Virus genome (UHGV): UHGV-0151410
DNA: 31,092 bases
DNA from: a virus
Strand: one strand, 5' to 3'
Within the stretch, counting starts at the first letter, position 1. Each line of letters starts with the position of its first letter. This document shows, piece after piece, positions 1-30,705 of this stretch. The notes under the pieces are model-generated. The model saw only the letters and a program-made list of their open reading frames with translations, ran no database searches and was not told where the DNA came from. The position numbers and the translations under genes are program-made.

Positions 1-264
1 ATGGGGCGCTTTTTCTTTCACGTAATGGGGGCGCTGGCAGAAATGGAACGTGAGCTTATCGTTGAACGTACACGCGCTGGACTTGATGCAGCTCGCGCAG
101 AAGGTCGTATAGGTGGGCGTCGGCCTAAATACCAAGAAGAAACATGGCAGCAAATGCGGCGATTGCTGGAGAAGGGCATCCCCCGTAAGCAGGTTGCAAT
201 CATCTATGATGTGGCTGTTTCCACGCTTTATAAGAAGTTTCCGGCGTCATCATTTCAATCCTAA
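1..264 (+). CDS. Serine DNA invertase (Gin/Cin/Hin/Pin family), C-terminal fragment; 5' end is outside the window
   Basis: Translation GRFFFHVMGALAEMERELIVERTRAGLDAARAEGRIGGRRPKYQ...IPRKQVAIIYDVAVSTLYKKFP is the conserved C-terminal catalytic-domain end plus HTH DNA-binding domain of Gin-family invertases. ORF runs to the window edge. Confidence 0.9.
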   Translation: MGRFFFHVMGALAEMERELIVERTRAGLDAARAEGRIGGRRPKYQEETWQQMRRLLEKGIPRKQVAIIYDVAVSTLYKKFPASSFQS

Positions 265-281
265 ACCTTGGTTTAAGAGAA
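256..281. other. Left crossover site (hix/gix/cix-like, 12+2+12 bp)
   Basis: CAATCCTAAACC-TT-GGTTTAAGAGAA; half-sites resemble hix half-sites (TTATCAAAAACC / TTCTTGAAAACC) around a 2-bp core. Invertase stop codon (262..264) lies in the outer half-site. Confidence 0.7.
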
Positions 282-409
282 CTCGGTACCAGCGGTGAAA
301 AGATCCCCCTGTTGAGTACGGCTAACACATGGAGTGCACGCCAGACTTTCAACGGCGGGATCACCGGGGCACTGACAGGGAACGCCGACACCGCGACGAA
401 ATTGAAAAC
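265..409. repeat. Left arm of the ~145-bp inverted repeat bounding the invertible segment
   Basis: Reverse complement matches 7075..7219 with only a few mismatches; encodes the same peptide (LGLRELGTSGEKIPLLSTANTWSARQTFNGGITG...) as the expressed fibre gene. Confidence 0.9.
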
Positions 410-3038
410 TGCACGCACGATTGGCGGTGTGGCATTTGATGGCTCGGCCAATATCAATCTTCCAGGTGTAAATACAACAGGCAACCAGAACACCACCGGG
501 AATGCTGCTACCGCGACAAAACTTGCGACGGCAAGAAACATCAACGGTGTTAAATTTGATGGTTCAGGGGACGTTAATATCAATACGTTGGTATCACGCG
601 GGCGCGTAACGGCGTTAAGTGGCTCTACTCAGGGTACTGCTGGCATTCAAATGTACGAGGCGTACAACAATAGCTACCCGACCACGTATGGCAACGTATT
701 GCACATGAAAGGTGCGAGTGCTGCTGGTGAGGGCGAGTTGCTTATTGGCTGGAGTGGTACGAGCGGTGCACATGCGCCGGTTTTCATTCGCTCCCGAAGA
801 GATAACACTGATGCGGCATGGTCAGCGTGGGCGCAGGTATATACATCAAGGGACTCCATTCCTGGTGTGAATGCCACTGGCAATCAGAATACAACTGGCA
901 ATGCAGCAACCGCTACAAAACTACAGACGGCAAGAACTATCGGCGGAGTTAGCTTTGATGGTACTGCGAATATTAATTTACCTGGTGTTAACGTTGCGGG
1001 TAATCAGAATACATCCGGTAACGCGGCTACAGCGACCAAGTTACAAACCGCTAGAACTATAAATGGGGTGTCGTTTGACGGTTCTAAAAACATTGAGCTA
1101 ACTCCAAGGTCTATAGGCTCGATCAACTCAGCAACAATGTCTTTTAGTGGTGGTGCCGGATGGTTCAAGCTGGCAACTGTAACCATGCCACAGGCCAGTT
1201 CCGTGGTTTACATAAGCCTGATTGGTGGTGCAGGGTATAACGTTGGCTCCCCGCAGCAAGCTGGCATATCTGAGCTGGTTCTGCGTGCAGGAAATGGGAA
1301 TCCAAAAGGTATTACTGGTGCATTATGGCGACGGACCTCGGTTGGATTTACTAATTTTGCATGGGTGAATACATCCGGTGATACCTATGACATTTATGTA
1401 GAAATAGGTAATTACGCCACAGGTGTTAATATCCAGTGGGATTATACAAAGGATGCAACTGTACAAATTCATACATCACCAACTTATACAGCGAATAAAC
1501 CAACTGGTCTTACTGATGGAACGGTATATGTCATTTACAGTTCGCACATTAAACCGACCGCCACGGATGTCGGCGCATTACCAATAACCGGAGGAAATCT
1601 CAACGGCGGTTTAACGGCTACTGGTGAGATCATTTCAAAATCGGCGAATGGTCTGCGCATTGCCTACGGAAACTACGGATTCTTTATCCGAAACGATGGT
1701 TCAAGCACATACTTCATGTTGACCGATTCGGGTAACAGCCTGGGAACCTATAATAGGTTAAGGCCGCTTATCATTAACAATGCCAATGGTGCTGTTACGA
1801 TCGGTAATGGACTCAATGTTACTGGCGGCATCAATGGTAGTTTGAACGGTAATGCTGCAACTGCAACAAAACTGCAAACAGCACGCACAATAGGCGGCGT
1901 GTCATTCGATGGCTCCGCCAATATCAACCTGCCGGGTGTAAACATTGCTGGTAACCAGAACACAACCGGTAATGCAGCGACAGCGACCAAGTTGCAAACT
2001 GCTAGAACTATAAATGGGGTGTCGTTTGATGGTTCTAAAAATATTGAGCTAACGGCGGAAGATTTAAATCTTGAGCAAACTGTAGAATTAGCCGCAGGAG
2101 CATTGCAGAAAAACCAGAACGGCGCAGATATACCGGGAAAAGATACCTTCACAAAAAATATTGGTGCATGTCGCGCTTTTCACAGTGCTATTAGTACAGG
2201 GGCAGGGAACTGGACAACGGCACAATTGATTGAATGGCTGGATTCTCAAGGGGCATTCAATCACCCATACTGGATGTGCAAATGTTCATGGTCATACGGC
2301 AATAATAAAATTATTACCGATACTGGCTGTGGAACTATTCATCTTGCAGGTTGCGTTATTGAGGTTATGGGTAATAAAGGTGCCATGACCATCCGTGTAA
2401 CCACCCCGAGCACTTCCAGCGGTGGCGGAACTACTAATGCACAATTCACTTATATTAATCATGGTGATGCTTATGCTCCTGGCTGGCGACGAGACTACAA
2501 CACGAAAAACCAGCAGCCTGCATTTGCTTTAGGGAAAACAGGAAGCACTGTCGGAAATGATAAAGCTGTTGGCTGGAACTGGAATAGCGGGGTCTATCAA
2601 GCAAATATTGGTGGCGCATCGACATTAATCCTCCATTTCAATATGAGCGAGGGGAGTTGCCCTGCCGTACAGTTCCGTGTGAATTATAAGAACGGCGGTA
2701 TTTATTATCGTTCAGCGCGTGATGGTTATGGATTTGAGGCTGACTGGTCAGAGTTTTACACCACAACCCGCAAACCCTCTGCGGGGGATGTTGGTGCATA
2801 TACCAAAGCGGAAGCGGACTCCCGTTATGTACGTGATATCCGACTTGGTGGCGCATCATCATACAAACCAGCAAATAACGGTACAACATGGACGCATCAG
2901 GCTCCATCTGGTTGCGCATATACCGGGATTATCGTTCAGGATACAGGCTCAAACTCTGCCGATAATATTGGTGGTGTTTATTACAGACCAATTCAAAAAA
3001 ATATTAATGGCACATGGTATAACGTATCGAGTATTTGA
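270..3038 (+). CDS. Silent alternative tail-fibre C-terminal segment (Sv'-like); no start of its own, would be fused to the constant N-terminal part after inversion
   Basis: Frame is open from the crossover core (GLRELGTSGEKIPLLSTANTW...) to the stop at 3038. Contains three copies of the ~55-aa fibre repeat (GNQNTTGNAATATKLQTARTI(N/G)GV(S/K)FDGS). The track ORF 312..3038 starts at an internal Met. Confidence 0.85.
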   Translation, partial: GLRELGTSGEKIPLLSTANTWSARQTFNGGITGALTGNADTATKLKTARTIGGVAFDGSANINLPGVNTTGNQNTTGNAATATKLATARNINGVKFDGSGDVNINTLVSRGRVTALSGSTQGTAGIQMYEAYNNSYPTTYGNVLHMKGASAAGEGELLIGWSGTSGAHAPVFIRSRRDNTDAAWSAWAQVYTSRDSIPGVNATGNQNTTGNAATATKLQTARTIGGVSFDGTANINLPGVNVAGNQNTSGNAATATKLQTARTINGVSFDGSKNIELTPRSIGSINSATMSFSGGAGWFKLATVTMPQASSVVYISLIGGAGYNVGSPQQAGISELVLRAGNGNPKGITGALWRRTSVGFTNFAWVNTSGDTYDIYVEIGNYATGVNIQWDYTKDATVQIHTSPTYTANKPTGLTDGTVYVIYSSHIKPTATDVGALPITGGNLNGGLTATGEIISKSANGLRIAYGNYGFFIRNDGSSTYFMLTDSGNSLGTYNRLRPLIINNANGAVTIGNGLNVTGGINGSLNGNAATATKLQTARTIGGVSFDGSANINLPGVNIAGNQNTTGNAATATKLQTARTINGVSFDGSKNIELTAEDLNLEQTVELAAGALQKNQNGADIPGKDTFTKNIGACRAFHSAISTGAGNWTTAQLIEWLDSQGAFNHPYWMCKCSWSYGNNKIITDTGCGTIHLAGCVIEVMGNKGAMTIRVTTPSTSSGGGTTNAQFTYINHGDAYAPGWRRDYNTKNQQPAFALGKTGSTVGNDKAVGWNWNSGVYQANIGGASTLILHFNMSEGSCPAVQFRVNYKNGGIYYRSARDGYGFEADWSEFYTTTRKPSAGDVGAYTKAEADSRYVRDIRLGGASSYKPANNGTTWTHQAPSGCAYTGIIVQDTGSNSADNIGGVYYRPIQKNINGTWYNVSSI
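1642..2071. repeat. Internal inverted repeat, copy A (perfect 1677..2071)
   Basis: Reverse complement is identical to 5002..5396, then continues to ~5431 with a few synonymous mismatches. Both copies encode IISKSANGLRIAYGNYGFFIRNDG...FDGSKNIELTAEDLNL. Confidence 0.85.
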
Positions 3039-3574
3039 TTATGATGCATTTAAAAAACATAAAGCCAGGCAATCCAAAAACCGAAGAGCAATATCTTTTA
3101 ACTAAAAACTCAGGCGTCGTCTGGTTATGGACCGAAGATGGTAAGAACTGGTACGAGGAACAAAAGAACTTTCAGGACGACACCATAAAGATTGCATATG
3201 ATGAAAATAATGTTATATGCGACGTGCAAAAGGATGTGACTGCAATTTGCCCGGAGGGAAAAAGTGTCGTTGAGGTTCCTGATATTACAGCAAATCGCCG
3301 GGCTGATATTTCGGGTAAATGGATGTTCAAAGATGGCGTAGTGATAAAGCGAACTTATACCGAGGAAGAGCAGAGGCAACAAGCGGAAAATGAAAAGCAA
3401 AGCCTGCTACAGCTCGTCAGGGATAAAACACAGCTATGGGACTTACAGCTACGGCTGGGCATCATTTCCGACGAGAATAAACAAAAATTAACCGAGTGGA
3501 TGCTCTATGCGCAGAAAGTCGAATCTACAGACACCTCCAGCCTGCCAGTAACATTTCCCGAACAACCTGAATGA
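3035..3574 (+). CDS. Tail fibre assembly chaperone (U'-like), cognate of the silent fibre segment
   Basis: 179 aa; start overlaps the fibre-segment stop (ATGA). Paralogous to the minus-strand 3603..4133 product (shared HLKNIKxGNPKT...WLW.EDxKNWYEE...[23 protein letters not shown]). Confidence 0.85.
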   Translation: MIMMHLKNIKPGNPKTEEQYLLTKNSGVVWLWTEDGKNWYEEQKNFQDDTIKIAYDENNVICDVQKDVTAICPEGKSVVEVPDITANRRADISGKWMFKDGVVIKRTYTEEEQRQQAENEKQSLLQLVRDKTQLWDLQLRLGIISDENKQKLTEWMLYAQKVESTDTSSLPVTFPEQPE

Positions 3575-3577
3575 GAC

Positions 3578-3605
3578 AAGGCCCGATAGCGGGCCTTAAT
3601 TTTTA
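3578..3605. terminator. Bidirectional hairpin terminator between convergent chaperone genes
   Basis: AAGGCCCG-ATAG-CGGGCCTT stem-loop with T-run after it on the + strand and A-run before it (T-run on the other strand). Confidence 0.6.
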
Positions 3606-4133
3606 TTCAGGCTTTTGTGGCCATTCAGGATTTGCCGTATCCACACGGCTGACCAGAACACTGTAGCGTTCCCATGCTTCCAGTCGTGTGCGCTCCTCGT
3701 CTGTTGCCATATTCAGCCTGACAGCGCGTTCCAGCGGCTGGATGACTGATTCAGCTTCGGAAAGCAATGCGGCCTTTTGTGATTCGGCCTGTTGTTGCTG
3801 TTCGTCTGCCGTATAAATCCGTTTAACCACAGCTCCATCCTTAAACATCCACTTCCCGGAGTCATCAGCACGTCGGTTGGCTGTAATATCGGGAACCTCA
3901 ACGACGCTAAAACCTTCAGGGTTAAGCGTGGATGCATCTTTGGTGATGGCGACAATAATATTATTTTCATCGTAAACAATCTTTATTGTGTCTGGTTGAA
4001 AGTTTTTCACTTCCTCATACCAGTTTTTATCGTCTTCGGACCATAACCAGATAACATCAAAATTCTTTGTTAGCTGATATTGTTCTTTCGTTTTAGGATT
4101 TCCAGACTTAATATTTTTTAAATGCTGCATCAT
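3603..4133 (-). CDS. Tail fibre assembly chaperone (U-like), cognate of the currently expressed fibre C-terminus
   Basis: 176 aa, directly downstream of the expressed fibre gene on the minus strand; paralogue of 3035..3574. Confidence 0.85.
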
Positions 4134-7100
4134 TTACACCTGTGCGACGTTATACCATGTGCCATTGATGTATTTTTGTATTGGCCTGAAGATGGCTTCA
4201 TCATCGCCATCTACTTCACCAATGATTCTTAATCCGGTAATTGCGTGTCCGGCTTTTTCATAACGACCACCACGCGCCATCAATTGAACAACTCGCGTAC
4301 CCAGGCGAACATCTTTTACATAGCGTGAATCAAAATTCCCCCAGTTGTTGGGCTGTATCTGACCGTTAACAGAAAATATTACCGAGTTATCTGTATTTCG
4401 CTGGCTATAGAAATGCCATCCTGCCTCATCGCCTAACTCTGCAACTACTGGACGGGTTGAAGCACCCCATAAATTAAACGTTGCATTCTTTGTGGAGGTG
4501 TTGGAGCTGGATAGCGAGAACTTTTTACTATCACCAGCCTGAATGTTTTTAAAAGCAATAGCAACTCCATTCTGAAAGCGGAATACTCGCTGACTATTAG
4601 CGTAAACATCCAGAATACCATCACCATTCTGTTTGAATCCGGTGTCATTATCACCAAGAACAATAGAGCTACCACCTAACGCATTCGTCGTACCAACTCC
4701 AAGACTGCCATTAATGACGGCATTTACCAGAATATTTAGTGCATCCCATTTCAGCGTCATCAGGTCTTTTGTTGTGGTGCTCTGGCGGCTTCTCCATTTG
4801 AAATATTCATTGCCGTTGTCGCCTGTTTCAAACCACATGTATGAATCAGTGTCACCATCGGCATCATTTTTAAATCCAATCTTTGCCCAGTCAGTATTTC
4901 GAATCCAGGCAAGGATTGAGTCGTTTTCAAAAGTAAGTCCTCCGGACAAGATATCGCCTGAACGCTGAACGGCATTATTTGCTTTATTAATAAATTCCTG
5001 TAGATTTAAATCTTCCGCCGTTAGCTCAATATTTTTAGAACCATCAAACGACACCCCATTTATAGTTCTAGCAGTTTGCAACTTGGTCGCTGTCGCTGCA
5101 TTACCGGTTGTGTTCTGGTTACCAGCAATGTTTACACCCGGCAGGTTGATATTGGCGGAGCCATCGAATGACACGCCGCCTATTGTGCGTGCTGTTTGCA
5201 GTTTTGTTGCAGTTGCAGCATTACCGTTCAAACTACCATTGATGCCGCCAGTAACATTGAGTCCATTACCGATCGTAACAGCACCATTGGCATTGTTAAT
5301 GATAAGCGGCCTTAACCTATTATAGGTTCCCAGGCTGTTACCCGAATCGGTCAACATGAAGTATGTGCTTGAACCATCGTTTCGGATAAAGAATCCATAG
5401 TTGCCATAGGCAATGCGCAGACCATTCGCCGATTTGGAAATAATCTCGCCAGCGAATTTCGCATAGGAACCAGTCCTCAAGACTAACTCTTCCTGAGCGT
5501 CAGTTGTTCCTGTACATAAGCGATAAACATTATTCTCTATTGTTTCATGCCATATGCTTGCACCTGTGCTGGAGCGGAAACGTCGCAGATACATTTTTGC
5601 ATCGTCAACAACTGACGTGAGCATGTCATGTTTATACTCACTTTGCGGCACGCCATTGCTATTGATTCCTCCCCGAAGAACAGTGCCACCCGGCATGGTA
5701 AAAATGCCATCTTCACCGAATATCCAATCACCTGAATTAGTACCATTGCCGGTTTCTTTATTCGGCGCAGCACAATTTATCCGGATGCCTGGTCGTCTGT
5801 TAGGGTTATCGACACCATCTTTAAATATGTACCCATCAGTTAGTGTTGTGCCGTCATTTTTCGTATATGTAAAGCGGATATGACGGCTTGTATGGCTACT
5901 AAAAATAAGATCGCTTTTAGTGGTAAGTAATGGAGCTGTCAGACCTCCTAATAATGTGCCTCCGGATAGAGACAGCGCGCCAATGTTCTCTGGTGTCAAC
6001 GAAATATCAGTAGTGCCATCGAAGGTTACTCCGTTGATTGTTCTGGCGGTCTGTAATTTAGTTGCTGTTGCAGCATTACCATTGAGGTTTCCAGAGCTAT
6101 AGAAACCACGACCATTGCTAAAATCAATAATTATGTCGGCAGCTATACATTCAGCTTTAGGGTTGGTAGCCCCCCATTTGTATGTGGTTTGTCCAACAAT
6201 ATAATCCGTTGTAGGGACAACAACAGAAAGCCCCTCCTCCACAAGAACGCATACTGGAAATGCTCCGCCTTCAATATAAAAAACTGAGCTAACTTCATCG
6301 TCTTTATTGCTCATCGCAATAGAATGAATCGCCCGTTCTGCATCCTGATATTGCCAGAACATCCCGTATGCGTACCGCCCTCTGTCACTCCAACCAGCAG
6401 GCATCACAAAACCATTGAATTCGCAGTTGTTCATGCGATGTGCAGCTTGGCGCGGCGCAGTGGAAATAATAACCCGAGAAGCAAGTTCACCATTGCTCGT
6501 TGCAGATCTCTTGATGACTACAGGATAGAATTTACCCTCTTCAGCTCCCGAAGGAGCATTGACTCTGGTGAATTTCATCCCTTTTTTAAGGTCTACTTCG
6601 GCTTTGCTGTAAACATCAATATTTTTTCTTGTTAACGCTGCATCAGTTGGTTCTAATGCTCGGCATTTGCTATCTCCGGTAATCAGAAAGTTACCGTCAA
6701 TGTCTAATCCGGCATATTTATTGGTGTTGGTATCAGATTGTAGATGTAACGTCAGCCATGAGCGGTTGCCACTCCTTATCTCTGAATAAATTCTGAAACG
6801 ACTCCTCTGTACCCCAGCTGAATTATTCAGATAACCACTTACAATCCCTGACGCGGCTAAATCAGCGTCTGTTGAGTTAACAAGATTGATACCCTTAAAT
6901 TGGGGGACGTCCGCAACACCTAATCCAAGATTAGTACGCCCTCCAGAGACGCTGGATGCACCTAATCCCCCATGAGTAATTGGTAAAATACCTTTTATGC
7001 CCAGAAGAGCATTTGATGAACCATCAAAGTCGATGGCGTTATCACTTTGGAGGTCAACTTGAAGCGACCTTTTGGTTTTCAATTTCGTCGCGGTGTCGGC

Positions 7101-8435
7101 GTTCCCTGTCAGCTCCCCGGTGATCCCGCCGTTGAAAGTCTGGCGCGCACTCCATGTGTTAGCTGTGCTCAACAGGGGGATCTTTTCACCGCTGGTACCG
7201 AGTTCTCTTAAACCAAGGTATTGGATAACGGCCAGTGTGCTTGTTTTAGCCAGAATATCGCGACCGACTGACGTTAAATCAGTCTGCGCTACCGTATCCT
7301 TACCAGTGAAATAAGGCAGTTTGTTTGCACCAGTCGCAAGGGCAGCGAGCGCGGTTAAAGTTGCATCCAGAGGCTGTTTGCCTGCCAGCGCATTTGTCAT
7401 TGTTGTCGCAAAGTTCGGGTCATTGCCCAGTGCTGCTGCAAGCTCATTCAGGGTATCAAGAGCTTCAGGTGATGAGCCGACCAATGCAGAGATAGCAGCT
7501 CTTACATAAGCGGTCGTAGCAATCTGCGTGTTATTCGTACCCTGTGCAGCGGTAGGCGCAGTAGGTATTCCCGTTAATGCAGGACTTGCTAAAGGCGCTT
7601 TAAGGGCCAGAGCATTGTTGATAGTTGTGCTGAAATTCGGGTCGTTATTGATCGCAGCCGCTATTTCTTTCAGCGTATCCAATGTGCCAGGTGCACCGTT
7701 GATAAGTGCCGTTATAGCTGCCTTAACAAAGGCCGCATTTGCGATCTGTGTGTTGTTTGTACCGGGTTCAGGTGTCGGCGAAGTCGGCGTACCTGACAGA
7801 TGTGGACTATCGAGCGGAGCTTTTGTATCAACCAAATCATGGAGAGTTTTGACAGCCAGAGGTGTAGCCGCTTTTCTTTCTTCTGTACTGCTTATTTCAT
7901 TAGAGAATTCGACACCAACAGCACGGTTAACCCGGTATTTAAGCACAATCATTTCTTTAGTCACAGCCGTTGCGCCGTTAGGCACGATAACTCGACATAA
8001 TTCAATTTGATTCTGCCCAATAGTATTGTCCGTACGCGCGTAAATTCTTGCAGCACTGACAGAAGATGCGCTCTCTACCTGTGTCGTTTTTACACCATGT
8101 TCAAAATTGGCTTCCAGCACAATAATGTTGGTAGCCCCAGCCTTTACCGAGACAGTCACATCTTCTATTTGCTGAACGGATATCTGAACATTATTTACAT
8201 CTACTGAAGCAGCCCCTTTACCTTCTGAGTTTTCAGAAGTTATACGGACGCTCAACCCTGTGCCGGGAACTGGTTCAAATCCACAGTAAAAGCCCGGCAA
8301 AACAATATTTTTAAGTTTTCTGTTAAGAGCCGAACTACTATAGAGTTCGAAATATTGAACATCAGCAAGCAACGGCTGTGAGACACCAGAGGATAGTGTC
8401 ATTATGTTGTTCGTTTTATCAGCACCCATAATCAA
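4134..8435 (-). CDS. Tail fibre protein (P1 S / Mu S-like): constant N-terminal part (about 7216..8435) fused to a variable C-terminal part (4134..7215)
   Basis: 1433 aa; N-terminal tandem ~65-aa repeats (GTNNTQIA...LDTL.E.AAA..NDPNF), multiple fibre repeats (GNAATATKLQTARTI.GV.FDGS); crossover site lies in frame inside the gene. Likely true start is the ATG at 8427..8429 (the track start at 8435 is TTG). Confidence 0.9.
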   Translation of the reverse strand: MIMGADKTNNIMTLSSGVSQPLLADVQYFELYSSSALNRKLKNIVLPGFYCGFEPVPGTGLSVRITSENSEGKGAASVDVNNVQISVQQIEDVTVSVKAGATNIIVLEANFEHGVKTTQVESASSVSAARIYARTDNTIGQNQIELCRVIVPNGATAVTKEMIVLKYRVNRAVGVEFSNEISSTEERKAATPLAVKTLHDLVDTKAPLDSPHLSGTPTSPTPEPGTNNTQIANAAFVKAAITALINGAPGTLDTLKEIAAAINNDPNFSTTINNALALKAPLASPALTGIPTAPTAAQGTNNTQIATTAYVRAAISALVGSSPEALDTLNELAAALGNDPNFATTMTNALAGKQPLDATLTALAALATGANKLPYFTGKDTVAQTDLTSVGRDILAKTSTLAVIQYLGLRELGTSGEKIPLLSTANTWSARQTFNGGITGELTGNADTATKLKTKRSLQVDLQSDNAIDFDGSSNALLGIKGILPITHGGLGASSVSGGRTNLGLGVADVPQFKGINLVNSTDADLAASGIVSGYLNNSAGVQRSRFRIYSEIRSGNRSWLTLHLQSDTNTNKYAGLDIDGNFLITGDSKCRALEPTDAALTRKNIDVYSKAEVDLKKGMKFTRVNAPSGAEEGKFYPVVIKRSATSNGELASRVIISTAPRQAAHRMNNCEFNGFVMPAGWSDRGRYAYGMFWQYQDAERAIHSIAMSNKDDEVSSVFYIEGGAFPVCVLVEEGLSVVVPTTDYIVGQTTYKWGATNPKAECIAADIIIDFSNGRGFYSSGNLNGNAATATKLQTARTINGVTFDGTTDISLTPENIGALSLSGGTLLGGLTAPLLTTKSDLIFSSHTSRHIRFTYTKNDGTTLTDGYIFKDGVDNPNRRPGIRINCAAPNKETGNGTNSGDWIFGEDGIFTMPGGTVLRGGINSNGVPQSEYKHDMLTSVVDDAKMYLRRFRSSTGASIWHETIENNVYRLCTGTTDAQEELVLRTGSYAKFAGEIISKSANGLRIAYGNYGFFIRNDGSSTYFMLTDSGNSLGTYNRLRPLIINNANGAVTIGNGLNVTGGINGSLNGNAATATKLQTARTIGGVSFDGSANINLPGVNIAGNQNTTGNAATATKLQTARTINGVSFDGSKNIELTAEDLNLQEFINKANNAVQRSGDILSGGLTFENDSILAWIRNTDWAKIGFKNDADGDTDSYMWFETGDNGNEYFKWRSRQSTTTKDLMTLKWDALNILVNAVINGSLGVGTTNALGGSSIVLGDNDTGFKQNGDGILDVYANSQRVFRFQNGVAIAFKNIQAGDSKKFSLSSSNTSTKNATFNLWGASTRPVVAELGDEAGWHFYSQRNTDNSVIFSVNGQIQPNNWGNFDSRYVKDVRLGTRVVQLMARGGRYEKAGHAITGLRIIGEVDGDDEAIFRPIQKYINGTWYNVAQV
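5002..5431. repeat. Internal inverted repeat, copy B (perfect 5002..5396)
   Basis: Reverse complement of 1642..2071. Confidence 0.85.
7075..7219. repeat. Right arm of the ~145-bp inverted repeat
   Basis: Reverse complement of 265..409. Confidence 0.9.
7203..7228. other. Right crossover site (hix/gix/cix-like)
   Basis: TTCTCTTAAACC-AA-GGTATTGGATAA; inner half-site identical to the left site, outer half-site TTATCCAATACC is hix-like. Confidence 0.7.
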
Positions 8436-23193: not shown

Positions 23194-23205
23194 TTTTTCT
23201 CCTGA

Positions 23206-23226: not shown

Positions 23227-23339
23227 GTTTTTGCCTTACTTCTGCTTTGTTTTTTTCTGTGCCTTTGAAGTGTTCACGGCGATAGTTTCACCTTCATCTA
23301 CGTCAAGTGACGTTGGTGATACCGACACGTTCGCCACCA

Positions 23340-25037
23340 TCACTTTTTTTCGTTAACCTTGCCTGTCAGCATGTCGATAGCACCTTCTTTGGCGCGAGTC
23401 AGACGCAGGCGGGTGAAGTAGTTTTCACCGTTGCGAGGATGTACTTCGTTGATGGCACTGCCCCAGAGAGTGGTACGGTTAACGAGAGACGGATTGGTTT
23501 CGTGCACGTAAGGGATTGCTGGGACTGCATCACCAGCAATCAGACCGGCTTTACCGATGCCTTCGCCACGCCCATAGAAGAAGATGTCATCCAGCCCGAA
23601 GTCATATCCCTGTGCCTGGAATTGCTCACAGACAGGTTGCGGCACTTCGTAAATACGAATCGTGCCAAACAGGGTGCCGATGTACTGTACATACGGCGAC
23701 TGAACGTAACCTGGTGCGATCTGGAAGTGCTGTGGAGGCAGAGAGCGCAGGAAGTTCGCGGCGTCACTACCAGCAAAGCCGCCACGAATACCCGTTGTCA
23801 GGGTACGATTTGCCATTTCTTGAGACAGAGCGTTTACTACGTGACGCAGGAGGCCGACCCAGGACTCATAGTTTTGAGCTTCCGGCAGAGCCACATCAAA
23901 TTCACGACCATAAACGGTATGGAATACCAGGGTGCGCAGACGCATGATGTCGGTTTCATGGGAGATCCAGTTACGCATCGCGGAGAACTGAAGTGCCGCT
24001 AATTCAAGGCCGTGCTCACGGCTTAAATCGGATGCGGACATTACCGTGTGTTCGGAAGCAAGTACGTACTGGGACGGACGAACTTCGTACTTACGCATAG
24101 CCTGGTTGATCACCGGAATCAGGCTTGGATTGCGCTCGATGTTAATTTCGACCTGAACAGCAATTTCAGTACCTTCTGGCGGAGCCTGGGTAAATGTAAT
24201 GTCAATGACACCAGTGTCATAGGCAACTTTGGCAGTCGCTGAGAAAGCATTACCTTTGCTGTCTTTAGCATTGAAATAAAGGTTGCCATCGCCGTCGTCA
24301 ACTTTGGACGGTTTGCGGTTGATCAGCAGTTTGTTATAACCAGCGCGAAGCGGGCAGGATTGTCCCTCAAAATTTTGGATGTTGAACTGGAAGGTTTTGG
24401 TGCTGCCATCCCCTTTAGTGGAAAGGGCATACAGGCGCTTCATTTGAGAATAAACACCAGCTGACTGCATATTCAGTTCGTCACCTTGGTTGAAGGTGCC
24501 GAATTTTGTGCCTGCTACGTTGACCAGTTCATAAATATTTGACTCGTCACGATCACAAGGAACAAAAGTACAGGCATCACTGGTAGCAGCGCCCAGAGAG
24601 GCAGGTAGAATTAGAGCAGCATATTGAGCAACTTTCATTACGCCGTCAGAGCTACGCATTGATTGCGCGACAGACTCAAACATTGCCTTACCCGTGCCTT
24701 CATGGGTATCACTGGCACATTCAGTCATCAGGCGCTCAAGAGCCATGTGTGCGTTCGCCAGGATGTCACTTGCCGGGTAATGACCATGTTGACGTTTATA
24801 CTCATGCAGAGACATAGCCCACCCACCAGTGATCTGACGAGCGACCTCTGGATTTACGCCTTCAAACATAGGCACTTTCTGGATTGCTTTATCCAGGTTT
24901 TCCATCATTACTGCCTGGTCAGCAATCATGTTGCCTGCTGCATCGGTGGTCGGATCGACGGTCATAGCCATGACGCTTGCCGCCCGATTCATAATCTCGC
25001 GCTCGCGATCACGAGCTGGCTGAATGTTTTTATTCAC
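23340..25037 (-). CDS. Probable major capsid protein precursor (HK97-like, with N-terminal delta/scaffold-like region), P1 gp23-like by size
   Basis: 565 aa; helical charged N-terminus (DREREIMNRAASVMAM...); followed by a hairpin and an Ig-like ORF; first gene of the minus-strand capsid-sheath-tube series. Assignment by context and size, not by a diagnostic motif. Confidence 0.55.
   Translation of the reverse strand: MNKNIQPARDREREIMNRAASVMAMTVDPTTDAAGNMIADQAVMMENLDKAIQKVPMFEGVNPEVARQITGGWAMSLHEYKRQHGHYPASDILANAHMALERLMTECASDTHEGTGKAMFESVAQSMRSSDGVMKVAQYAALILPASLGAATSDACTFVPCDRDESNIYELVNVAGTKFGTFNQGDELNMQSAGVYSQMKRLYALSTKGDGSTKTFQFNIQNFEGQSCPLRAGYNKLLINRKPSKVDDGDGNLYFNAKDSKGNAFSATAKVAYDTGVIDITFTQAPPEGTEIAVQVEINIERNPSLIPVINQAMRKYEVRPSQYVLASEHTVMSASDLSREHGLELAALQFSAMRNWISHETDIMRLRTLVFHTVYGREFDVALPEAQNYESWVGLLRHVVNALSQEMANRTLTTGIRGGFAGSDAANFLRSLPPQHFQIAPGYVQSPYVQYIGTLFGTIRIYEVPQPVCEQFQAQGYDFGLDDIFFYGRGEGIGKAGLIAGDAVPAIPYVHETNPSLVNRTTLWGSAINEVHPRNGENYFTRLRLTRAKEGAIDMLTGKVNEKK
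23343..23349 (-). other. Candidate -1 programmed frameshift heptamer A_AAA_AAG overlapping the capsid stop codon
   Basis: Minus-strand ...GAA AAA AAG TGA. The -1 frame is open for 35 codons (VMVANVSVSPTSLDVDEGETIAVNTSKAQKKTKQK), then one TAA, then continues in the same frame into the Ig-like ORF. Confidence 0.4.
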
Positions 25038-25195
25038 GGTTAAGCCCTAAATTCGGGCGCGGCGTGAAGGTTCTTTTGACGGGCTAACAATACCTACTTT
25101 GTGATTTAGTCAATAGGTTTAGTAAAATAAAATCTATTAACACTCATGTTGTTATGTGATTTAATTTTAGTTTTCTAACACAAATCATTAGAGTT

Positions 25196-25588
25196 ATGGC
25201 GTATCGAATCTTTGTTTCGTATAAAAATGGCGCTAAGAGCCACTCTCTGAACACAACAAGTCGCTTTCTTGTTGAGGCGCAGTTGGCATCAATTCTTGCC
25301 GAAAGTGAGATACTCTCGCTCGCTGAACGGATCGTTATCCAGTTTTCTGGTAGAGATATACTCAATGTCCCCGCCCTCACCCCGGCATCCGAAGTTATGG
25401 AATCAATTAAATGGCCTGTATGCGGATGTCCTGCCAGGGTTGAAGAGCCGGTAACTGCAACGCTCTACATGCCGAAAGCTGTAAGAGATTGGCTTGCTAT
25501 GGTTGGCAATGGGAAAGTCAGTGCTGGACTTCGCAAGTTAATTGAAATGGCAGATATTCCTGAGTTAAAAAATGCATGGCGACAATGA
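25196..25588 (+). CDS. Hypothetical protein with C-terminal ribbon-helix-helix-like segment (candidate regulator or antitoxin); first gene of a two-gene cassette
   Basis: 130 aa; C-terminal TATLYMPKAVRDWLAMVGNGKVSAGLRKLIEMA fits a beta-strand/helix/G-x-S turn/helix RHH pattern. Opposite strand to all flanking late genes; AT-rich upstream region. Confidence 0.55.
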   Translation: MAYRIFVSYKNGAKSHSLNTTSRFLVEAQLASILAESEILSLAERIVIQFSGRDILNVPALTPASEVMESIKWPVCGCPARVEEPVTATLYMPKAVRDWLAMVGNGKVSAGLRKLIEMADIPELKNAWRQ

Positions 25589-25604
25589 GTAAACAAGGGA
25601 CAAA

Positions 25605-26063
25605 ATGAGTCACGTTAACCCATCAAAAACACAATATCGCTTAATGCTGGCGATCGCGTCAGCTATACCAACCAGCCTGAATCCCCCGACAGGCTATCCC
25701 GCTGTTGTTGATGATTGTTTTCAGTATTACGGAGAAGACATCCTGAGCCAGTCAAAAGCGCTCAAGCAGTTATGTAAGGCTGGTATTCTTCACTGTATCG
25801 GAGATCCGGACGATTTTGTTGTTATGCTGGCGGATCGTGACTCTTTTCTACTGTCCTGGAAAGCTGGTGCGCGCGAAGCACGTTTGGGGAATGGTATTGG
25901 TTACATAGACTATAGCGATTGTCCGCTGGCATTTGCTGGTGGATATATGCATTGGCATGAGCGAAATAGGGGCCGTCAGCGTCAGTATCGTTTGAGTGAC
26001 TTTAACGTCTGTCACGGTTTCGAAGAAGCTGACAGCCAGGACATCTGGCTTCAGGAGCCTTGA
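25605..26063 (+). CDS. Hypothetical Cys/His-containing protein, second gene of the cassette
   Basis: 152 aa; AAGGGA SD 16 bp after the upstream gene; 3' end overlaps the convergent spanin-like ORF by 13 bp. Confidence 0.55.
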   Translation: MSHVNPSKTQYRLMLAIASAIPTSLNPPTGYPAVVDDCFQYYGEDILSQSKALKQLCKAGILHCIGDPDDFVVMLADRDSFLLSWKAGAREARLGNGIGYIDYSDCPLAFAGGYMHWHERNRGRQRQYRLSDFNVCHGFEEADSQDIWLQEP

Positions 26064-26383
26064 TCCCCCTTCCCTTCCCAAATCTCCCTGTTTCTTTGGT
26101 TATTCAGTGCGTTTCGTTGGTTGCATTCGTCGATCGTGCTGAATAACTGTTCAGCGTATGTCGGATACTTGTTTAACAGCACTGGCGTGTCTTCTGGCAC
26201 TAAACAAGGGGAGTAATCAATCAGATTTGCCTGCGGCCTGCTGGTGGCTTCTACGGTAATTTTCACTGGCACGCTGGTTGATGGCTTTTGCCCGTTCCCG
26301 CTGCATCCTGATAACGTCATCAGGCACACGCACATCGTTAATCCCAGCACGGCGTAACGCATTTTCAAGGCGAGTGATTTCAT
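26051..26383 (-). CDS. Outer-membrane spanin-like lipoprotein (Rz1-like, overlapped architecture)
   Basis: Signal peptide with lipobox LSGC (…MRYAVLGLTMCVCLMTLSGCSGNG…); starts inside the Rz-like gene in another frame and extends past its stop. Probable start is an internal Met (about 26362). Confidence 0.5.
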   Translation of the reverse strand: MKSLALKMRYAVLGLTMCVCLMTLSGCSGNGQKPSTSVPVKITVEATSRPQANLIDYSPCLVPEDTPVLLNKYPTYAEQLFSTIDECNQRNALNNQRNREIWEGKGDQGS

Positions 26384-26702
26384 TCTGGCTTTCCTCCCGT
26401 TGTTTGATTAGGTTGGCATTCAGTTCTGCTGTTTTGCGCTGGTACTCCTTTTCCAGTGCTTTAATTCTTTCGTTTTCGGTCAGCATGGCTGAGCGAGCGT
26501 TCTCACTTAACTGTAATGCGGTAGAAAGTGTGTTGTTCGTGCTTTCCAGTTGTGATTTTGAGTCTTCAAGCGATCGGACATACCTGATGTGTTCGATAAC
26601 TGCCGTCGTTGTTCGGTAAAATCCAGAAATGGCTAAAAGCGCAATTACAATCAAAATTATCTTTTTCAAAACCATCCTCTTCAGGTTCATTTTTGGTGTC
26701 AA
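26217..26702 (-). CDS. Inner-membrane spanin-like protein (Rz-like): N-terminal TMD plus coiled coil
   Basis: 161 aa; N-terminal hydrophobic segment KKIILIVIALLAISGFY followed by a long charged helical region (ENERIKALEKEYQRKTAELNANLIKQREESQNEITRLENALRRA). Confidence 0.55.
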   Translation of the reverse strand: MTPKMNLKRMVLKKIILIVIALLAISGFYRTTTAVIEHIRYVRSLEDSKSQLESTNNTLSTALQLSENARSAMLTENERIKALEKEYQRKTAELNANLIKQREESQNEITRLENALRRAGINDVRVPDDVIRMQRERAKAINQRASENYRRSHQQAAGKSD

Positions 26703-26745
26703 ACATGTACCAATTCACATCCTTTTGTGTTCCTAAGTGGTGTTG

Positions 26746-27549
26746 CTATTGTTCCTTTTTGGTGTTCTTTTGGAGCGCATCGATAACGCCTTGTGGCATG
26801 ATTAAACTGATTGCCGGACTCATTACTGCATCATCCAGTAGAGAACCAGTTAACGTGATGGCGACAGCGTTCTCTAAACCTTTGGTTGCCTGAGTGGTTG
26901 ACGTTTTAATGCGACCTGTAAGGGCTACGACACTCTCACTTGCTGAGTTAATTTCGGAGAGTAAAACTTCGGCGGCTGTCACTGCTTCCCGTAAAGCATC
27001 AATTTCATCCTGAGTAATGACTGGAGCCTGAGCGCCCCCAGCACCACCCTGTCCACCATTGCTATAACCACCAGCACTTCCAGCAGCTTCTATTTTTGCG
27101 TTAATGGCGTTCATGGCGGTTTTCAGAGCATCAAGTTTTAGCGCCGTCAATGCGTCCGTTAGAGATTGCGGAATGGAAACATTCCCCATCCCCTCAACAA
27201 GGGCGAAAGCAGGTATGGGGGTCAGCTCGTTACCTTTTACGTAGCATTCCCAGCCAATCTTCATCTGTAACAGCTCTGATGGCTTGGTGTATGGGGAAAG
27301 AGAATCAGCCAGTAATGAAGACGCTTTGCTGGCCTCATTGAGCTGTTCAGAAAAGCCAAGCAATTGAGTAGTCCAGGCCGAAACAGAATCAGGATAGGTT
27401 TTATCGGCGTGAACTATTCCCTGTATGGCGCTGGCGAGCGATGAGGCTTTTACAGAAGCTGCCCGGCTTATGGTTATAGATTCTGGTGTAGAGATACCGG
27501 CATCTGACAGAATTTTGAAGGCTTTAACTTCACCTATTGAATCAAGCAT
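26746..27549 (-). CDS. Hypothetical baseplate/spike-associated protein (start at Met overlapping the PAAR gene stop)
   Basis: ATG at 27547..27549 overlaps the TAA of the upstream PAAR-like gene by 1 nt; Gly-rich stretch GGYSNGGQGGAGGAQAP. The track's longer ORF (to 27648) runs inside the PAAR gene. Confidence 0.5.
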   Translation of the reverse strand: MLDSIGEVKAFKILSDAGISTPESITISRAASVKASSLASAIQGIVHADKTYPDSVSAWTTQLLGFSEQLNEASKASSLLADSLSPYTKPSELLQMKIGWECYVKGNELTPIPAFALVEGMGNVSIPQSLTDALTALKLDALKTAMNAINAKIEAAGSAGGYSNGGQGGAGGAQAPVITQDEIDALREAVTAAEVLLSEINSASESVVALTGRIKTSTTQATKGLENAVAITLTGSLLDDAVMSPAISLIMPQGVIDALQKNTKKEQ

Positions 27550-27833
27550 TATGCAACCTGAAAAATATCCTCGCCGTTGGCGATAACAGAACCACAAGAA
27601 AGCGGATCGCCCACACAGACAACTCCCTTTCCACCTATCGAAAACCATACTCGCGTCGATACAGCTGCCCCTGGATGTGCACTGTTACCGTCAGTGTGAC
27701 TGGGAAACATGGCACCATCTACAACAATTGGCTTACCGTTAACGGTGAACCAGGGAACAGTTTCAGCTACCAGTCGCGGCGGAAATCCTCCGTGACCAGA
27801 ACAAAGGGTGTCGCTGGTGGCTATTGCGCTCAT
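27549..27833 (-). CDS. PAAR-like repeat protein (baseplate central spike tip)
   Basis: 94 aa with PAAR-type pattern: CSGHGG..., ...NGKPIVVDGAMFPSH..., ...HPGAAVSTRVWF..., ...VGDPLSCGSVIANG.... Confidence 0.7.
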   Translation of the reverse strand: MSAIATSDTLCSGHGGFPPRLVAETVPWFTVNGKPIVVDGAMFPSHTDGNSAHPGAAVSTRVWFSIGGKGVVCVGDPLSCGSVIANGEDIFQVA

Positions 27834-27914
27834 TCTTCACCTCCTGGTTATCCTCCTATTGTCATCACTTTGTTATTTCGTCATTCAAACTGAGAGTTAA
27901 ATTTCGGAATATTT

Positions 27915-28080
27915 TTGTATTCTCAATTCATTCTCAAATAAATCTCACTGTCAGACCATCATTCATTGGGTGATTAAGATATTCTCAAAATGAACTCAAT
28001 AATCACTCTTTTTTTATCTCTTTTGGTGTGGATTTTTAGGTGCTTCTCTATTAAAATTGCATTTTGATTCTCAAATGTGT
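27915..28080. promoter_or_regulatory. parC-like centromere/promoter region with repeated (A/G)TTCTCAA motifs upstream of parM
   Basis: At least four ATTCTCAA copies (27919, 27930, 27981, 28067) plus related TCTCA motifs in an AT-rich region. Confidence 0.55.
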
Positions 28081-28100
28081 CTCAGAAGTGGAGCAAGAAG

Positions 28101-29057
28101 ATGCGCATTTTTATCGATGATGGTTCAACCAATATCAAAATGCTGTGGGAGCACGACGGGGAAACTCGCACTCACATCAGCCCTAACAGCTTTAAGCGCG
28201 GATGGTCAGCAACATTTGGTGCGGGCAAGCCGTTTAACTATGTCATTGACGACGAAAAGTATTCGTATGATTTGATCTCGCCAGATGTTCTGCCGACGAA
28301 TAACGTGGAATGGCAATACAGCCCGCTTAACGTCCTGGCTGTTCACCATGCCCTGCTGACAAGTGGCATTGAGCCGCAGGAAGTAGAAATTGTGGTCACG
28401 CTGCCTCTGGCGGAGTTTTACGACGACGACGCGCAATACAATCTCGATAACATCGAGCGCAAGAAAGCCAGCCTTATGCGCCCCGTCACGCTGAATAAAG
28501 GCAATGTGTTCACGATTAAGAAAGTTACGGTACGCCCGGAGTCTATTCCGGCAGGAATTGGCCTGTGCGACAATCTGAACCCTGCCCATTCTGTTCTTAT
28601 CGTCGATTTGGGTGGAACTACCCTTGATGTTTCAATGGTCGCCGGGCAAATGACGGCAGTTTCCCGTGTTTTTGGCGATTCGAATCTTGGCGTCTCTCTG
28701 GTTACCAGGGAAGTAAGGCAAGCACTTGCCAGAGCCAATACCGAAACGTCAAATTACAATGTCGATCAGCTCATTATTAACCGCCACGATGAAGATTATC
28801 TGAACGACAATATCAATGACCCATCAGCGATTGGTGATGTGAAAAAGGCCATTGCCGCAAGCATTGACCGTCTGCGTACCCGCGTTCTTGATGTGATTGG
28901 CGACTTTAAAGGATATACGCATGTCATGGTGATCGGTGGTGGCGCACCGCTGGTGGCAGATGCAATTCGCGAGCAAGTTAATATTCGTGATGACCGTTTC
29001 TTCGTGGCGGATGACCCGCAACTTGCTCTTGTTCATGGCCTGAAAGCAATCGGTTAA
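28101..29057 (+). CDS. parM: Actin-like plasmid segregation ATPase ParM (StbA)
   Basis: MRIFIDDGSTNIKMLW...ISPNSFKRGW...LAVHHALLTSG...IVDLGGTTLDVS...GYTHVMVIGGGA closely parallels plasmid R1 ParM (MLVFIDDGSTNIKLQW...). ATG at 28101 with SD. Confidence 0.9.
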   Translation: MRIFIDDGSTNIKMLWEHDGETRTHISPNSFKRGWSATFGAGKPFNYVIDDEKYSYDLISPDVLPTNNVEWQYSPLNVLAVHHALLTSGIEPQEVEIVVTLPLAEFYDDDAQYNLDNIERKKASLMRPVTLNKGNVFTIKKVTVRPESIPAGIGLCDNLNPAHSVLIVDLGGTTLDVSMVAGQMTAVSRVFGDSNLGVSLVTREVRQALARANTETSNYNVDQLIINRHDEDYLNDNINDPSAIGDVKKAIAASIDRLRTRVLDVIGDFKGYTHVMVIGGGAPLVADAIREQVNIRDDRFFVADDPQLALVHGLKAIG

Positions 29058-29064
29058 CGAGGTA

Positions 29065-29409
29065 ATGTCCATGTCTCAGGAACGTAAGAAAGTGATGATT
29101 TATCTTCGCCCAGAGGCTTATGCCAATGAAAAGGCGGCGAGCGAGAAGATAAAAAAACATAGCGATATGGCAAGAACCGCATTGTTGGCAGGGCTTGCGC
29201 TGGGAGAAGTCGATAGCAGGCTTCCAGGATTACTGGCTTCCCTGCTGACCGAAGACAATAACCCGGAGCTGATCCGAAAAATGCTGGCATCCTTCCTGGA
29301 ACTACCAGCTGCGGTTGAGGAGCGCCCTGCCTCCATTGAGCCAGTGAAGGAGCAAGTTGTTGCCAAAAGCGCGTCGGCGCGCAATCTGGCTGACTCTCTT
29401 CCTGATTGA
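29065..29409 (+). CDS. parR: ParR-like centromere-binding adaptor (RHH N-terminus)
   Basis: Directly downstream of parM; N-terminal KVMIYLRPEAY...ARTALLAGLALG resembles R1 ParR (…ALTAGLAL…). Start may be the ATG at 29071. Confidence 0.75.
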   Translation: MSMSQERKKVMIYLRPEAYANEKAASEKIKKHSDMARTALLAGLALGEVDSRLPGLLASLLTEDNNPELIRKMLASFLELPAAVEERPASIEPVKEQVVAKSASARNLADSLPD

Positions 29410-29427
29410 CAGAAGATGTGCTGGTTT

Positions 29428-29454
29428 AAGGCTGCAAATTGCAGCCTTTTTTAT
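29428..29454 (+). terminator. Rho-independent terminator after parR
   Basis: AAGGCTGC-AAATT-GCAGCCTT followed by TTTTTTAT. Confidence 0.7.
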
Positions 29455-29461
29455 GCATTAA

Positions 29462-29664
29462 TGGTGTCTAATTGGTGTTAATCTGGAACCAGTTAGGTGC
29501 TGTTATGGTGCAATTTTGTATCTGGTTCCAATTTGGGGCTGATTTCGTGTTAAATAGGATGCAATATAAGGTGTATTTGGTCTGATTGATGTTATACTTT
29601 GCCAAACATTCATGACTCCATTATAGAGCCTGTCCCGCATCAAAAAGGCTCTTATCTGGAACCG
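29462..29664. promoter_or_regulatory. Centromere/operator-like repeat region upstream of parA (TCTGG(A/T)(A/T)CC motifs)
   Basis: TCTGGAACC at 29482 and 29655, TCTGGTTCC at 29521, plus repeated GGTG...TCTGG units. Confidence 0.5.
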
Positions 29665-29696
29665 TTTTGATACCAAAATCACACCGAGGAACGGAT

Positions 29697-30338
29697 ATGA
29701 TTATATTGGTAGCCAGCCAAAAAGGTGGCTGTGGCAAATCAACCACCAGCGTAAATATTTGTGCGGAGCTTGCCCGCGCAAATAAGGACGTAGTTCTACT
29801 TGATGCAGATAAGCAAGGAACATCTGCCCGTTGGGCATCGGACCGTAATGCGGCAGAGGTTTCTCCAGTAATTCATTGCGTCCAGAAGTTTGGGAATATT
29901 CGTGAAACACTTCTTGATCTGGACAAGCGTTATGAATTTGTGGTTGTTGATACCGCTGGTCGTGATAGCAAAGAAATGCGCACCGGTATTACTGCGGCGG
30001 ATGTTTTGCTTGTTCCATTCAGGCCATCTCAGCCAGATTTAGACACTCTGGCGCATTTTGTTGAAGTCTTTGAAGAGGCTTTGGATCTGATGCCTAATCC
30101 TAGCATTAAGGCGTGCGCAGTCTTAACAATGGCCCCATCCAATCCGGTTGTGAATGAAGCCAATGAGGCCAAAGAGTACCTGGCTGAATATCCGCAACTG
30201 AAGTTGCTGAAAACCATCATTCGCGATCGCAAGGTTTACCGCGATTGTATGGCTGAAGGGAAGGGCGTTGTTGAGATGGACAACGGGAAAGCTAAAGGTG
30301 AAATCCAGATGTTGGTTAAGGAGTTATTAAGTGATTAA
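29697..30338 (+). CDS. parA: Small Walker-A partition ATPase (type Ib ParA/ParF-like)
   Basis: MIILVASQKGGCGKSTTSVN... deviant Walker A (KGGxGKS); ~213 aa with no N-terminal HTH; GAGGA SD before the ATG at 29697. Confidence 0.85.
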   Translation: MIILVASQKGGCGKSTTSVNICAELARANKDVVLLDADKQGTSARWASDRNAAEVSPVIHCVQKFGNIRETLLDLDKRYEFVVVDTAGRDSKEMRTGITAADVLLVPFRPSQPDLDTLAHFVEVFEEALDLMPNPSIKACAVLTMAPSNPVVNEANEAKEYLAEYPQLKLLKTIIRDRKVYRDCMAEGKGVVEMDNGKAKGEIQMLVKELLSD

Positions 30339-30618
30339 GCCTCGTAAATCGGTAAAAGCCCCCGAAGTAAAAGACCTCGATCTTGAACGCCGAATTGAGG
30401 CTTTTGCCAGCAAAGCTGATTTGGTGCCGGGTGAGCAACCAGAAGACAACAAAGTGCTCGATAAGGACGCCCCACGTGATTTTAAATCCATTCGTGTTGG
30501 CTTCAATGAATACGAGTACCAGGTACTTGATGCGTTAAGCAAAAAGCATAATCGCAGCAAATTGAATATGATCCGCCATGCTATCCTCATGTTAGCGGAG
30601 TCTGAGGAAGCAAAATAA
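30331..30618 (+). CDS. ParG/ParB-like ribbon-helix-helix centromere-binding protein (partner of the type Ib ParA)
   Basis: 95 aa, GTG start with AAGGAG SD, overlaps the parA stop; C-terminal RHH pattern (IRVGFNEYEYQVLDALSKKHNRSKLNMIRHAILML). Confidence 0.7.
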   Translation: MIKPRKSVKAPEVKDLDLERRIEAFASKADLVPGEQPEDNKVLDKDAPRDFKSIRVGFNEYEYQVLDALSKKHNRSKLNMIRHAILMLAESEEAK

Positions 30619-30659
30619 AGTCTTTCAGGTTGGTTTTAGAACTTAAAAAGTTTTGAACC

Positions 30660-30705
30660 AAAGGTGCACCAATACACCACTAATTTGGTGCACTTTTATA
30701 TCCTT
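30660..30705 (+). terminator. Putative terminator hairpin after the second partition operon
   Basis: AAAGGTGCACCAA ... TTGGTGCACTTT stem-loop followed by TTTTATATCCTTTTT. Confidence 0.5.

Follow-up and report, generated by a model that had tools for sequence, protein, structure and literature searches.

A 31-kb Virus Sequence Pairing P1-Type Virion Genes with a Different Maintenance Backbone Very Probably Belongs to the D6-Like Phage-Plasmids

Introduction

Gilcrease and Casjens are said to have described D6-like plasmid prophages in their 2018 paper, the original report of the D6 genome. P1-like phage-plasmids are split into two subgroups, P1-g1 and the D6-related P1-g2, and in the second about 14 conserved phage genes separate the replication from the partition genes (Pfeifer et al. 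2021; PMC7969092). D6-like plasmid prophages are also documented in Salmonella: all members carry repB with iterons, parM/stbB/parA and the cargo gene glnS, and their genomes diverge most in the fibre inversion region, sit being divergent too (Silva et al. 2019; PMC6799933). Here we examine a stretch of 31,092 nucleotides from the virus genome UHGV-0151410 (hereafter the window), in which a preliminary description had recognized P1-like virion genes joined to a non-P1 maintenance backbone, and from which it had proposed a mosaic or little-described phage-plasmid lineage.

P1 itself (NC_005856; Punavirus, P1-g1, IncY) shares with the window the relative order and orientation of some 20 virion and lysis genes. 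From the left its map runs cin, C-segment, R, 16, bplA, pmgA, sit, pmgB, tub and pmgC; after pmgC comes a block of simCBA, c4, icd, ant, kilA, repL, rlfAB and pmgF, followed by bplB, pmgG, 21, 22 and 23; a second block, of parS, parB, parA, incA, repA, oriR and upfA, succeeds gene 23, and mlp/ppfA, upfB, upfC, uhr, hrdC and dmt stand to the right. In that second block P1 RepA, a very distant Rep_3 member, has ParA, ParB and parS as its neighbours, and P1 ParA is of type Ia, with an HTH_54 domain and a large ParB as its partner.

Results and Discussion

Identity of the Window

Our comparisons support, with a probability of about 0.96, a model where the window represents approximately one third of a phage-plasmid of the D6-like subgroup P1-g2 and is essentially the same element as the Escherichia coli plasmid ptetA. 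Listing of open reading frames (ORFs) combined with homology searches gave 32 genes, every one of which occurs in phage D6 (NC_050154) in the same order. When the window was compared with phages by megablast, Escherichia phage D6 was the only genome covering it, and for positions 15000-31092 D6 was the sole match, in one aligned piece at 98.5%. Aligned piecewise, the DNA is 97.6% identical to D6 over 1-412, 96.0% over 7075-12258 and 97.6% over 12534-31092, hence 96-98% outside the invertible fibre segment and the repeat in sit. At the protein level the D6 series from Cin to GlnS is found in the same order with 95-100% identity, save in Sit (85.5%) and the variable parts of the fibres, and RepA (D6 orf42), Tub, BplB and gp21 are each 100% identical to their D6 counterparts. 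Iterons, partition loci and a candidate late-promoter motif lie at the same positions in D6 and in the window, and the cix crossover sites are the same.

The resemblance to ptetA (NZ_CP047013.1, 93,419 bp; E. coli 19-5, swine, China) extends across the whole window at 99.9% DNA identity (99.94% over 1-12445 and 99.87% over 12318-31092), the two differing by 28 substitutions and three gaps; the ptetA fibre cassette is likewise enlarged, and oriented as in the window. This plasmid was located with the fibre cassette alone as query (99.9%), and it stood below the top of the first plasmid rankings because the sit repeat makes its two aligned pieces overlap, so that they stay unjoined. The backbone is widely shared: in PLSDB, window 7200-31092 is covered to 80% or more by at least 45 plasmids of E. 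coli and Salmonella. The separation described for P1-g2 is also present, given that repA ends at 17560, parM starts at 28101, and 15 ORFs, tub to upfC, lie between them.

The D6-like lineage is already sequenced, described and common in E. coli and Salmonella, and the window is neither new nor poorly described. With a published group, colinearity with D6 through all 32 genes and near identity to ptetA, the suggestion of a mosaic or little-described lineage is refuted. A P1-like virion with different maintenance genes is in fact the defining architecture of the published D6-like (P1-g2) phage-plasmids, and the discovery value is small; the practical value is one of labelling, the sequence being best annotated as D6-like and not as P1-like or novel. 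Work on P1-type phage-plasmids may also profit from four by-products: a fibre switch with possibly four states, a late-promoter box peculiar to this lineage, the variable copy number of a repeat in Sit and the corrected start of the o-spanin.

Some points weigh against this assignment. Only 31 kb are visible, and the repressor, the cre/lox-type site, pac, lpa, repL and the addiction genes lie outside; c1, lpa, pac, cre with its site, phd/doc, higBA and repL are present in ptetA and in D6, beyond the 31-kb window. The functions proposed for RepA, ParMR and ParA/orf61 rest on homology, and D6 itself differs from the window in the fibre cassette and in the sit repeat. As to the ends stated in the preliminary description, neither 1 nor 30705 is a natural boundary: both are set by the extent of the window, base 1 falling inside cin and glnS beginning at 30887.

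An Old Divergence from P1

The departures from P1 that had been recognized at the outset are real, and so is the likeness. The genes of a P1-type myovirus (invertase-controlled fibre, tape measure, sheath and capsid) are all present in P1 order: apart from the two P1 blocks described above, neither of which it contains, the window keeps the P1 genes in order and orientation through upfC, and its pmgC-bplB gap is free of the P1 immI/repL block. As had been noted, the replicon sits elsewhere than in P1, a RepE/Rep_3-type repA standing between pmgB and tub and not between 23 and upfA. The partition genes likewise differ as claimed, since ParM/ParR and a small ParA lacking the HTH_54 domain of P1 ParA are found, and tblastn of P1 RepA, ParA and ParB against the window gave no match. 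Other differences in layout are an immunoglobulin (Ig)-like gene between 22 and 23, two ORFs of unknown function after 23, and two par loci with glnS after upfC. Protein identity to P1 ranges from 27 to 63% (capsid 44%, sheath 41%), with only cin, U and fibre parts closer, and nucleotide matches of P1 and P7 are confined to window 1-7838, the fibre cassette.

Could this combination have arisen lately, through recombination that gave a true P1 (Punavirus, P1-g1) virion module a foreign replicon and foreign partition genes? The fibre cassette lends the idea what appeal it has: the 87 visible residues of Cin are 100% identical to P1 Cin (98.9% to D6 Cin), and over 258-5453 the window shares 99.6% identity with the P1-type IncY plasmid pY-Ec2 (NZ_MK455768.1), whose remaining virion genes are of the P1 lineage. 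Beyond the cassette, on the other hand, virion proteins share 27-55% identity with P1, and the megablast search of 15000-31092 against phages returned D6 and nothing else. Closeness to D6 is uniform, virion genes being as near as backbone genes, and because of this equally high identity there is no sign of a recent union of P1 with a foreign backbone; the layout recurs in the at least 45 plasmids already mentioned, and GC content makes no step at the replicon or at the par loci. A recent mosaic is extremely improbable, and the difference from P1 is an old difference between lineages. What the cassette indicates is a recent exchange of cin and the C-segment, as a module, between the two subgroups: the fibre cassette moves between them, since 258-5453 is nearly identical to pY-Ec2 while the other virion genes differ at about half of their residues. 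The similarity to pY-Ec2 stops at 5453, exactly where an inner inverted repeat of the fibre segment ends.

We also considered a D6-like element that persists as a plasmid only, having lost virion production. Truncated D6-like variants do exist, such as p75 of Salmonella ST213, which is devoid of a 15-kb morphogenesis region (PMC6799933), and two thirds of the element lie outside the window, among them, upstream, the modules for lysis and antirestriction that p75 has lost as well. Yet the baseplate, tail tube and tail fibre region deleted from p75 lies within the window, each D6 gene of the region is represented by an intact ORF of matching length, and neither insertion sequence elements nor frameshifts were seen in the window. 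A defective plasmid seems unlikely to us.

Replication and Partition

The plasmid origin (16521-16781) begins with an inverted iteron (16521-16540) and a DnaA-box-like sequence, ATATCCACA (16559-16567), followed by an AT-rich stretch (16570-16620) with 11-mers (16589-16620) and by five tandem iterons (16660-16779), which are spaced at 22 bp and extend up to the start of repA; six iteron copies exist in addition to these five. The repA gene (16805-17560, +) encodes an initiator of the Rep_3/RepE type, 251 amino acids long, with Rep3_N (103 bits) and Rep3_C (58 bits) domains; residues 22-249 match the structure of F-plasmid RepE, 1rep, with an expectation value (E) of 1e-73, and a BLASTP comparison with P1 RepA showed no significant similarity (E = 0.057). 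Downstream of repA a second iteron cluster (17557-17850), five copies in both orientations, likely serves copy-number control. Given the initiator domains, tandem iterons, AT-rich region and DnaA box, the locus is, by its predicted features, an iteron-type Rep_3 (RepE-like) replicon.

The mini-F ori2/RepE system displays the same layout: DnaA box, AT-rich region, iterons overlapping the rep promoter, rep and a second iteron cluster. The likeness has its limits, for RepA scores 281 bits against the cutoff of 342 of the NCBIfam RepE equivalog, the iteron sequence is unlike that of mini-F, and the replicon of the window, unlike mini-F, is embedded among phage late genes. Judging from RepE and mini-F, RepA would bind the origin iterons and, with DnaA, open the adjoining AT-rich DNA; repression of its own promoter, overlapped by the last iteron, would be a further role, and copy number would be limited through pairing of the downstream iterons. 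The prophage would replicate as a low-copy circular plasmid.

Two partition loci lie to the right of upfC. The first comprises a parC-like region upstream of parM (27919-28084), recognized from clustered TTCTCA-type repeats in an 11-bp register, the gene for ParM (28101-29057, +), a type II actin-like segregation ATPase with StbA_N and ParM C-terminal domains that matches the R1 ParM structure (E = 7e-111), and that for the ParR/StbB adaptor (29071-29409, +; Plasmid_stab_B, PF10784). With its actin-like ParM, its ParR and its upstream parC repeats, this is a type II ParMRC locus as predicted from homology; ParR on parC would cap ParM filaments that push sister plasmids apart, as in R1. A good intrinsic terminator follows parR (29428-29448, +), between the two par operons, and on this account we regard the two loci as separate operons.

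The second locus starts with a small ParA (29697-30338, +; 213 amino acids; NF041546), in which the Walker A motif is deviant (KGGCGKST) and an N-terminal helix-turn-helix (HTH) domain is missing. With a size of about 200 residues and without that domain it is a putative type Ib ATPase, and among proteins of solved structure ParF of TP228 is closest to it, matched along the full length (E = 3e-18). The following gene, orf61 in D6 nomenclature (30331-30618, +), has a start that overlaps the end of parA and encodes 95 amino acids; it falls in phrog_9169, to which no function is assigned, and Pfam, NCBIfam and PDB returned no match for it. A single-sequence AlphaFold model of orf61 is of low confidence (pLDDT, the predicted local distance difference test, 58), with helices at residues 60-72 and 75-94. 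We take orf61 as the putative centromere-binding partner of ParA, a role that falls in type Ib systems to a small ribbon-helix-helix protein with repeat arrays: by analogy with TP228 the ParF-like ATPase, with orf61 as adaptor, would position plasmids on the nucleoid. Short repeats of the GGTG(T/C) and TGGAACC types flank parA-orf61 at 29460-29670 and 30660-30730; they are weak, possible centromere or operator sites. In layout the pair of loci resembles pB171, where a ParM/ParR system likewise neighbours a small Walker-type ParA and its small partner on one replicon. The par loci of pB171, which we take to be divergent, differ in this from those of the window, arranged in tandem on the same strand with a terminator between.

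The Invertible Fibre Cassette

The window opens within cin, of which the 3' end is visible, the last 87 codons of a serine DNA invertase (1-264, +; Resolvase and HTH_7 domains) whose gene starts upstream. The crossover site cixL, TCCTAAACCTTGGTTTAAGA (259-278), does not differ from the cixL annotated in P1 and in D6, and cixR (7206-7225) is identical to that of D6 and P1. Together they bound an invertible segment of 6.95 kb (269-7215), flanked by an inverted repeat (258-409 and 7075-7226), in comparison with 4.27 kb in D6 and P1. Between the two sites lie Sv' (S'), a silent alternative C-terminal fibre part (312-3038, +) with Gp34_trimer and gp37_C domains; U', a tail-fibre assembly chaperone in the silent orientation (3035-3574, +; Caudo_TAP; 84% to D6 and P1 U'); and U, its counterpart in the expressed orientation (3603-4133, -; Caudo_TAP; 96% to D6 U and 99% to P1 U). 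The tail fibre S (4134-8435, -; 1433 amino acids, Phage_fiber_2 and Gp34_trimer domains) consists of a constant part, Sc (8435 to about 7216), joined across cixR to a variable part, Sv. Its residues 1-466 are 95.6% identical to D6 S and its C-terminal part 58%; S' is 66-74% identical to D6 S' in patches and 99.9% to that of ptetA. Both fibre parts are longer than in D6 (1433 against 939 amino acids for S, 908 against 506 for S'), with 58-74% identity in the variable parts.

An invertase beside two inverted sites that bracket alternative fibre ends with their chaperones makes this a tail-fibre switch of the Cin/Gin/Hin type; of cin the 3' end is visible here, and the N-terminal catalytic part and the enhancer lie beyond the window. 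In the orientation of the window, Sc and the long Sv arm form the 1433-residue S, with U following; inverting the segment in silico at the cix sites gives an intact S of 1329 amino acids that ends in the S' tip, then U'. Host range would be switched as Cin inverts the 6.95-kb segment, the constant part of S fusing with either variable end and each end bringing its own chaperone, and Sv' would be expressed only once inversion has fused it to Sc.

Within the segment we found a further inverted repeat of 458 nucleotides (left arm 1621-2078, right arm 4995-5452), 98% complementary and in frame in both fibre genes. A synthetic junction representing inversion of the inner 2.9 kb was used as query, and its entire length (100%) matched, at 99.5% identity, pNCYU-25-82-5 (CP042632.1), a plasmid with a D6-type replicon; in that plasmid (4442-14386) the inner part is inverted relative to the window and the outer parts have the same orientation. 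Marker positions place its crossover inside a 395-nucleotide stretch where both arms are identical, and this stretch contains a quasi-cix sequence, TTATCCGAAACG-AT-GGTTCAAGCACA, with five mismatches to the 20-nucleotide core of cixL. All four combinations of outer and inner orientation retain an intact S ORF, of 1433, 1466, 1329 and 1296 amino acids. The enlarged segment could on these grounds be a two-level switch, with Cin acting at cixL/cixR and a flip of the inner 2.9 kb giving four fibres rather than two, but we hold this to be a rather doubtful proposition. The inner-flipped form was seen once, in pNCYU-25-82-5, a near-identical D6-type plasmid, and among 5,426 RefSeq E. coli genomes there was no further inner-flipped isomer and seven carried the arrangement of the window. 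The flip may record one past recombination event and not a functioning switch.

Candidate Late Promoters

Searches of the window with the P1 late-promoter pattern CAARTKACT-N4-TANNAT (at most one mismatch) and with the P1 C1 operator (at most three mismatches) gave no match. The intergenic regions preceding R, pmgB and gene 23 have in common, instead, the motif AAATCACA-N7-YATNNT, which was derived from these same three sites, so that finding it at all three is no independent test. The candidate D6-type late promoters are AAATCACA-N7-CATACT upstream of R/S (8917-8937, -), in the position of P1 LPs; a site upstream of pmgB-sit (16455-16475, -), located where the insertion of the replicon parts pmgB-sit from the genes upstream; and one upstream of gene 23 (25087-25107, -), in the position of P1 LP23. 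Elsewhere in D6 the motif recurs exactly, and on the appropriate strand, ahead of the genes for portal and lysozyme and ahead of mat; D6 also has two sites with one mismatch, of which one precedes ddrB and the second is next to no obvious gene. An Lpa-like activator is encoded by D6. Promoters with the AAATCACA box probably drive the late genes in place of the P1 box.

Virion Genes and the Sit Repeat

Pfam matched almost none of the virion proteins, and their assignments rest on PHROGs. After S come R, a tail-fibre assembly or structural protein (8432-8878, -; phrog_2032; 97% to D6 R, 46% to P1 R), the gp16 homologue, of baseplate or tail tube (8973-9818, -; phrog_2015; 99% D6, 44% P1), the baseplate protein BplA (9829-11259, -; phrog_1369; 98.7% D6, 41% P1) and the PmgA homologue (11256-11630, -; phrog_1896; 98% D6).

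Sit (11636-15580, -; phrog_7182) is a tape-measure-like injection transglycosylase of 1314 amino acids. It differs in length from D6 Sit by 54 amino acids, and its C-terminal third is 47-75% identical. A tandem repeat of 25 amino acids, PKTPQQEQALAISQAMAGFSSAAPA (about 12296-12445, -), is present in no copy in D6, two in the window and five in ptetA, which accounts for a 225-nucleotide difference between the window and ptetA. The count could reflect real length variation of a putative tail ruler, or else collapse during assembly.

The PmgB homologue (15595-16416, -; phrog_1854; 99% D6, 40% P1) bears the label "head morphogenesis" in both PHROGs and RefSeq; it shows a weak, below-cutoff match to Pfam T4_baseplate (E = 4e-5), has tail genes as neighbours, and may be a baseplate component. 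Beyond the replicon follow the tail tube protein Tub (17942-18649, -; phrog_1842; 49% P1), the homologues of PmgC (18665-19216, -; phrog_1851), BplB (19271-19762, -; phrog_1120) and PmgG (19771-20343, -; phrog_1114), the gp21 homologue, of baseplate or tail (20411-21145, -; phrog_1053), and the tail sheath gp22 (21189-22847, -; phrog_1036; 98.7% D6). The 92-residue structural protein with an Ig-like (Big_2) domain (22915-23193, -), for which there is nothing at the corresponding P1 position, may decorate the capsid or the tail. A 34-codon ORF is listed between its gene and that of the major capsid protein gp23 (23340-25037, -; phrog_1014; 99% D6). The genes together would specify a P1-type virion with a contractile tail, built from a gp23 capsid, the Ig-like decoration protein, gp22 sheath, Tub tube, Sit, baseplate proteins and a PAAR tip.

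Right-Hand Region

The preliminary description had also held the region from capsid to PAAR protein to be unlike P1, which is correct in part. Where P1 has its par-rep-upfA block, the window has two small ORFs, homologues of D6 orf52 and orf53 (25196-26063, +; 99% D6; phrog_7830 and phrog_8101, with no function assigned); the spanin pair, upfB and upfC, by contrast, keep the P1 arrangement. The UpfB homologue (26746-27549, -; phrog_1559) is 27% identical to P1 UpfB, and the PAAR-motif protein UpfC (27549-27833, -; NF033420; 55% to P1 UpfC), which scores 26.4 bits for PAAR_motif against a cutoff of 27, is likely the tip of the tail spike. At the far right lies the 5' end of glnS (30887-31092, +), a plasmid-borne glutaminyl-tRNA synthetase gene whose 68 visible residues are 100% identical to D6 GlnS. 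Searches of the window for tRNAs and Rfam families returned no match.

The spanin pair consists of an Mlp-like o-spanin lipoprotein with the lipobox LSGC (26051-26383, -; tblastn of P1 Mlp, E = 5e-6) and an Rz-like i-spanin in the position of PpfA (26217-26669, -; phrog_214, E = 1.5e-15), with an N-terminal transmembrane segment. P1 mlp and ppfA overlap by 167 nucleotides, exactly as does this pair, and P1 Mlp too has an LSGC lipobox. The o-spanin gene is absent from the PLSDB gene table of ptetA, and in RefSeq the D6 orf54 (73 amino acids) starts 37 codons too late, so that the signal peptide and the LSGC lipobox are lost.

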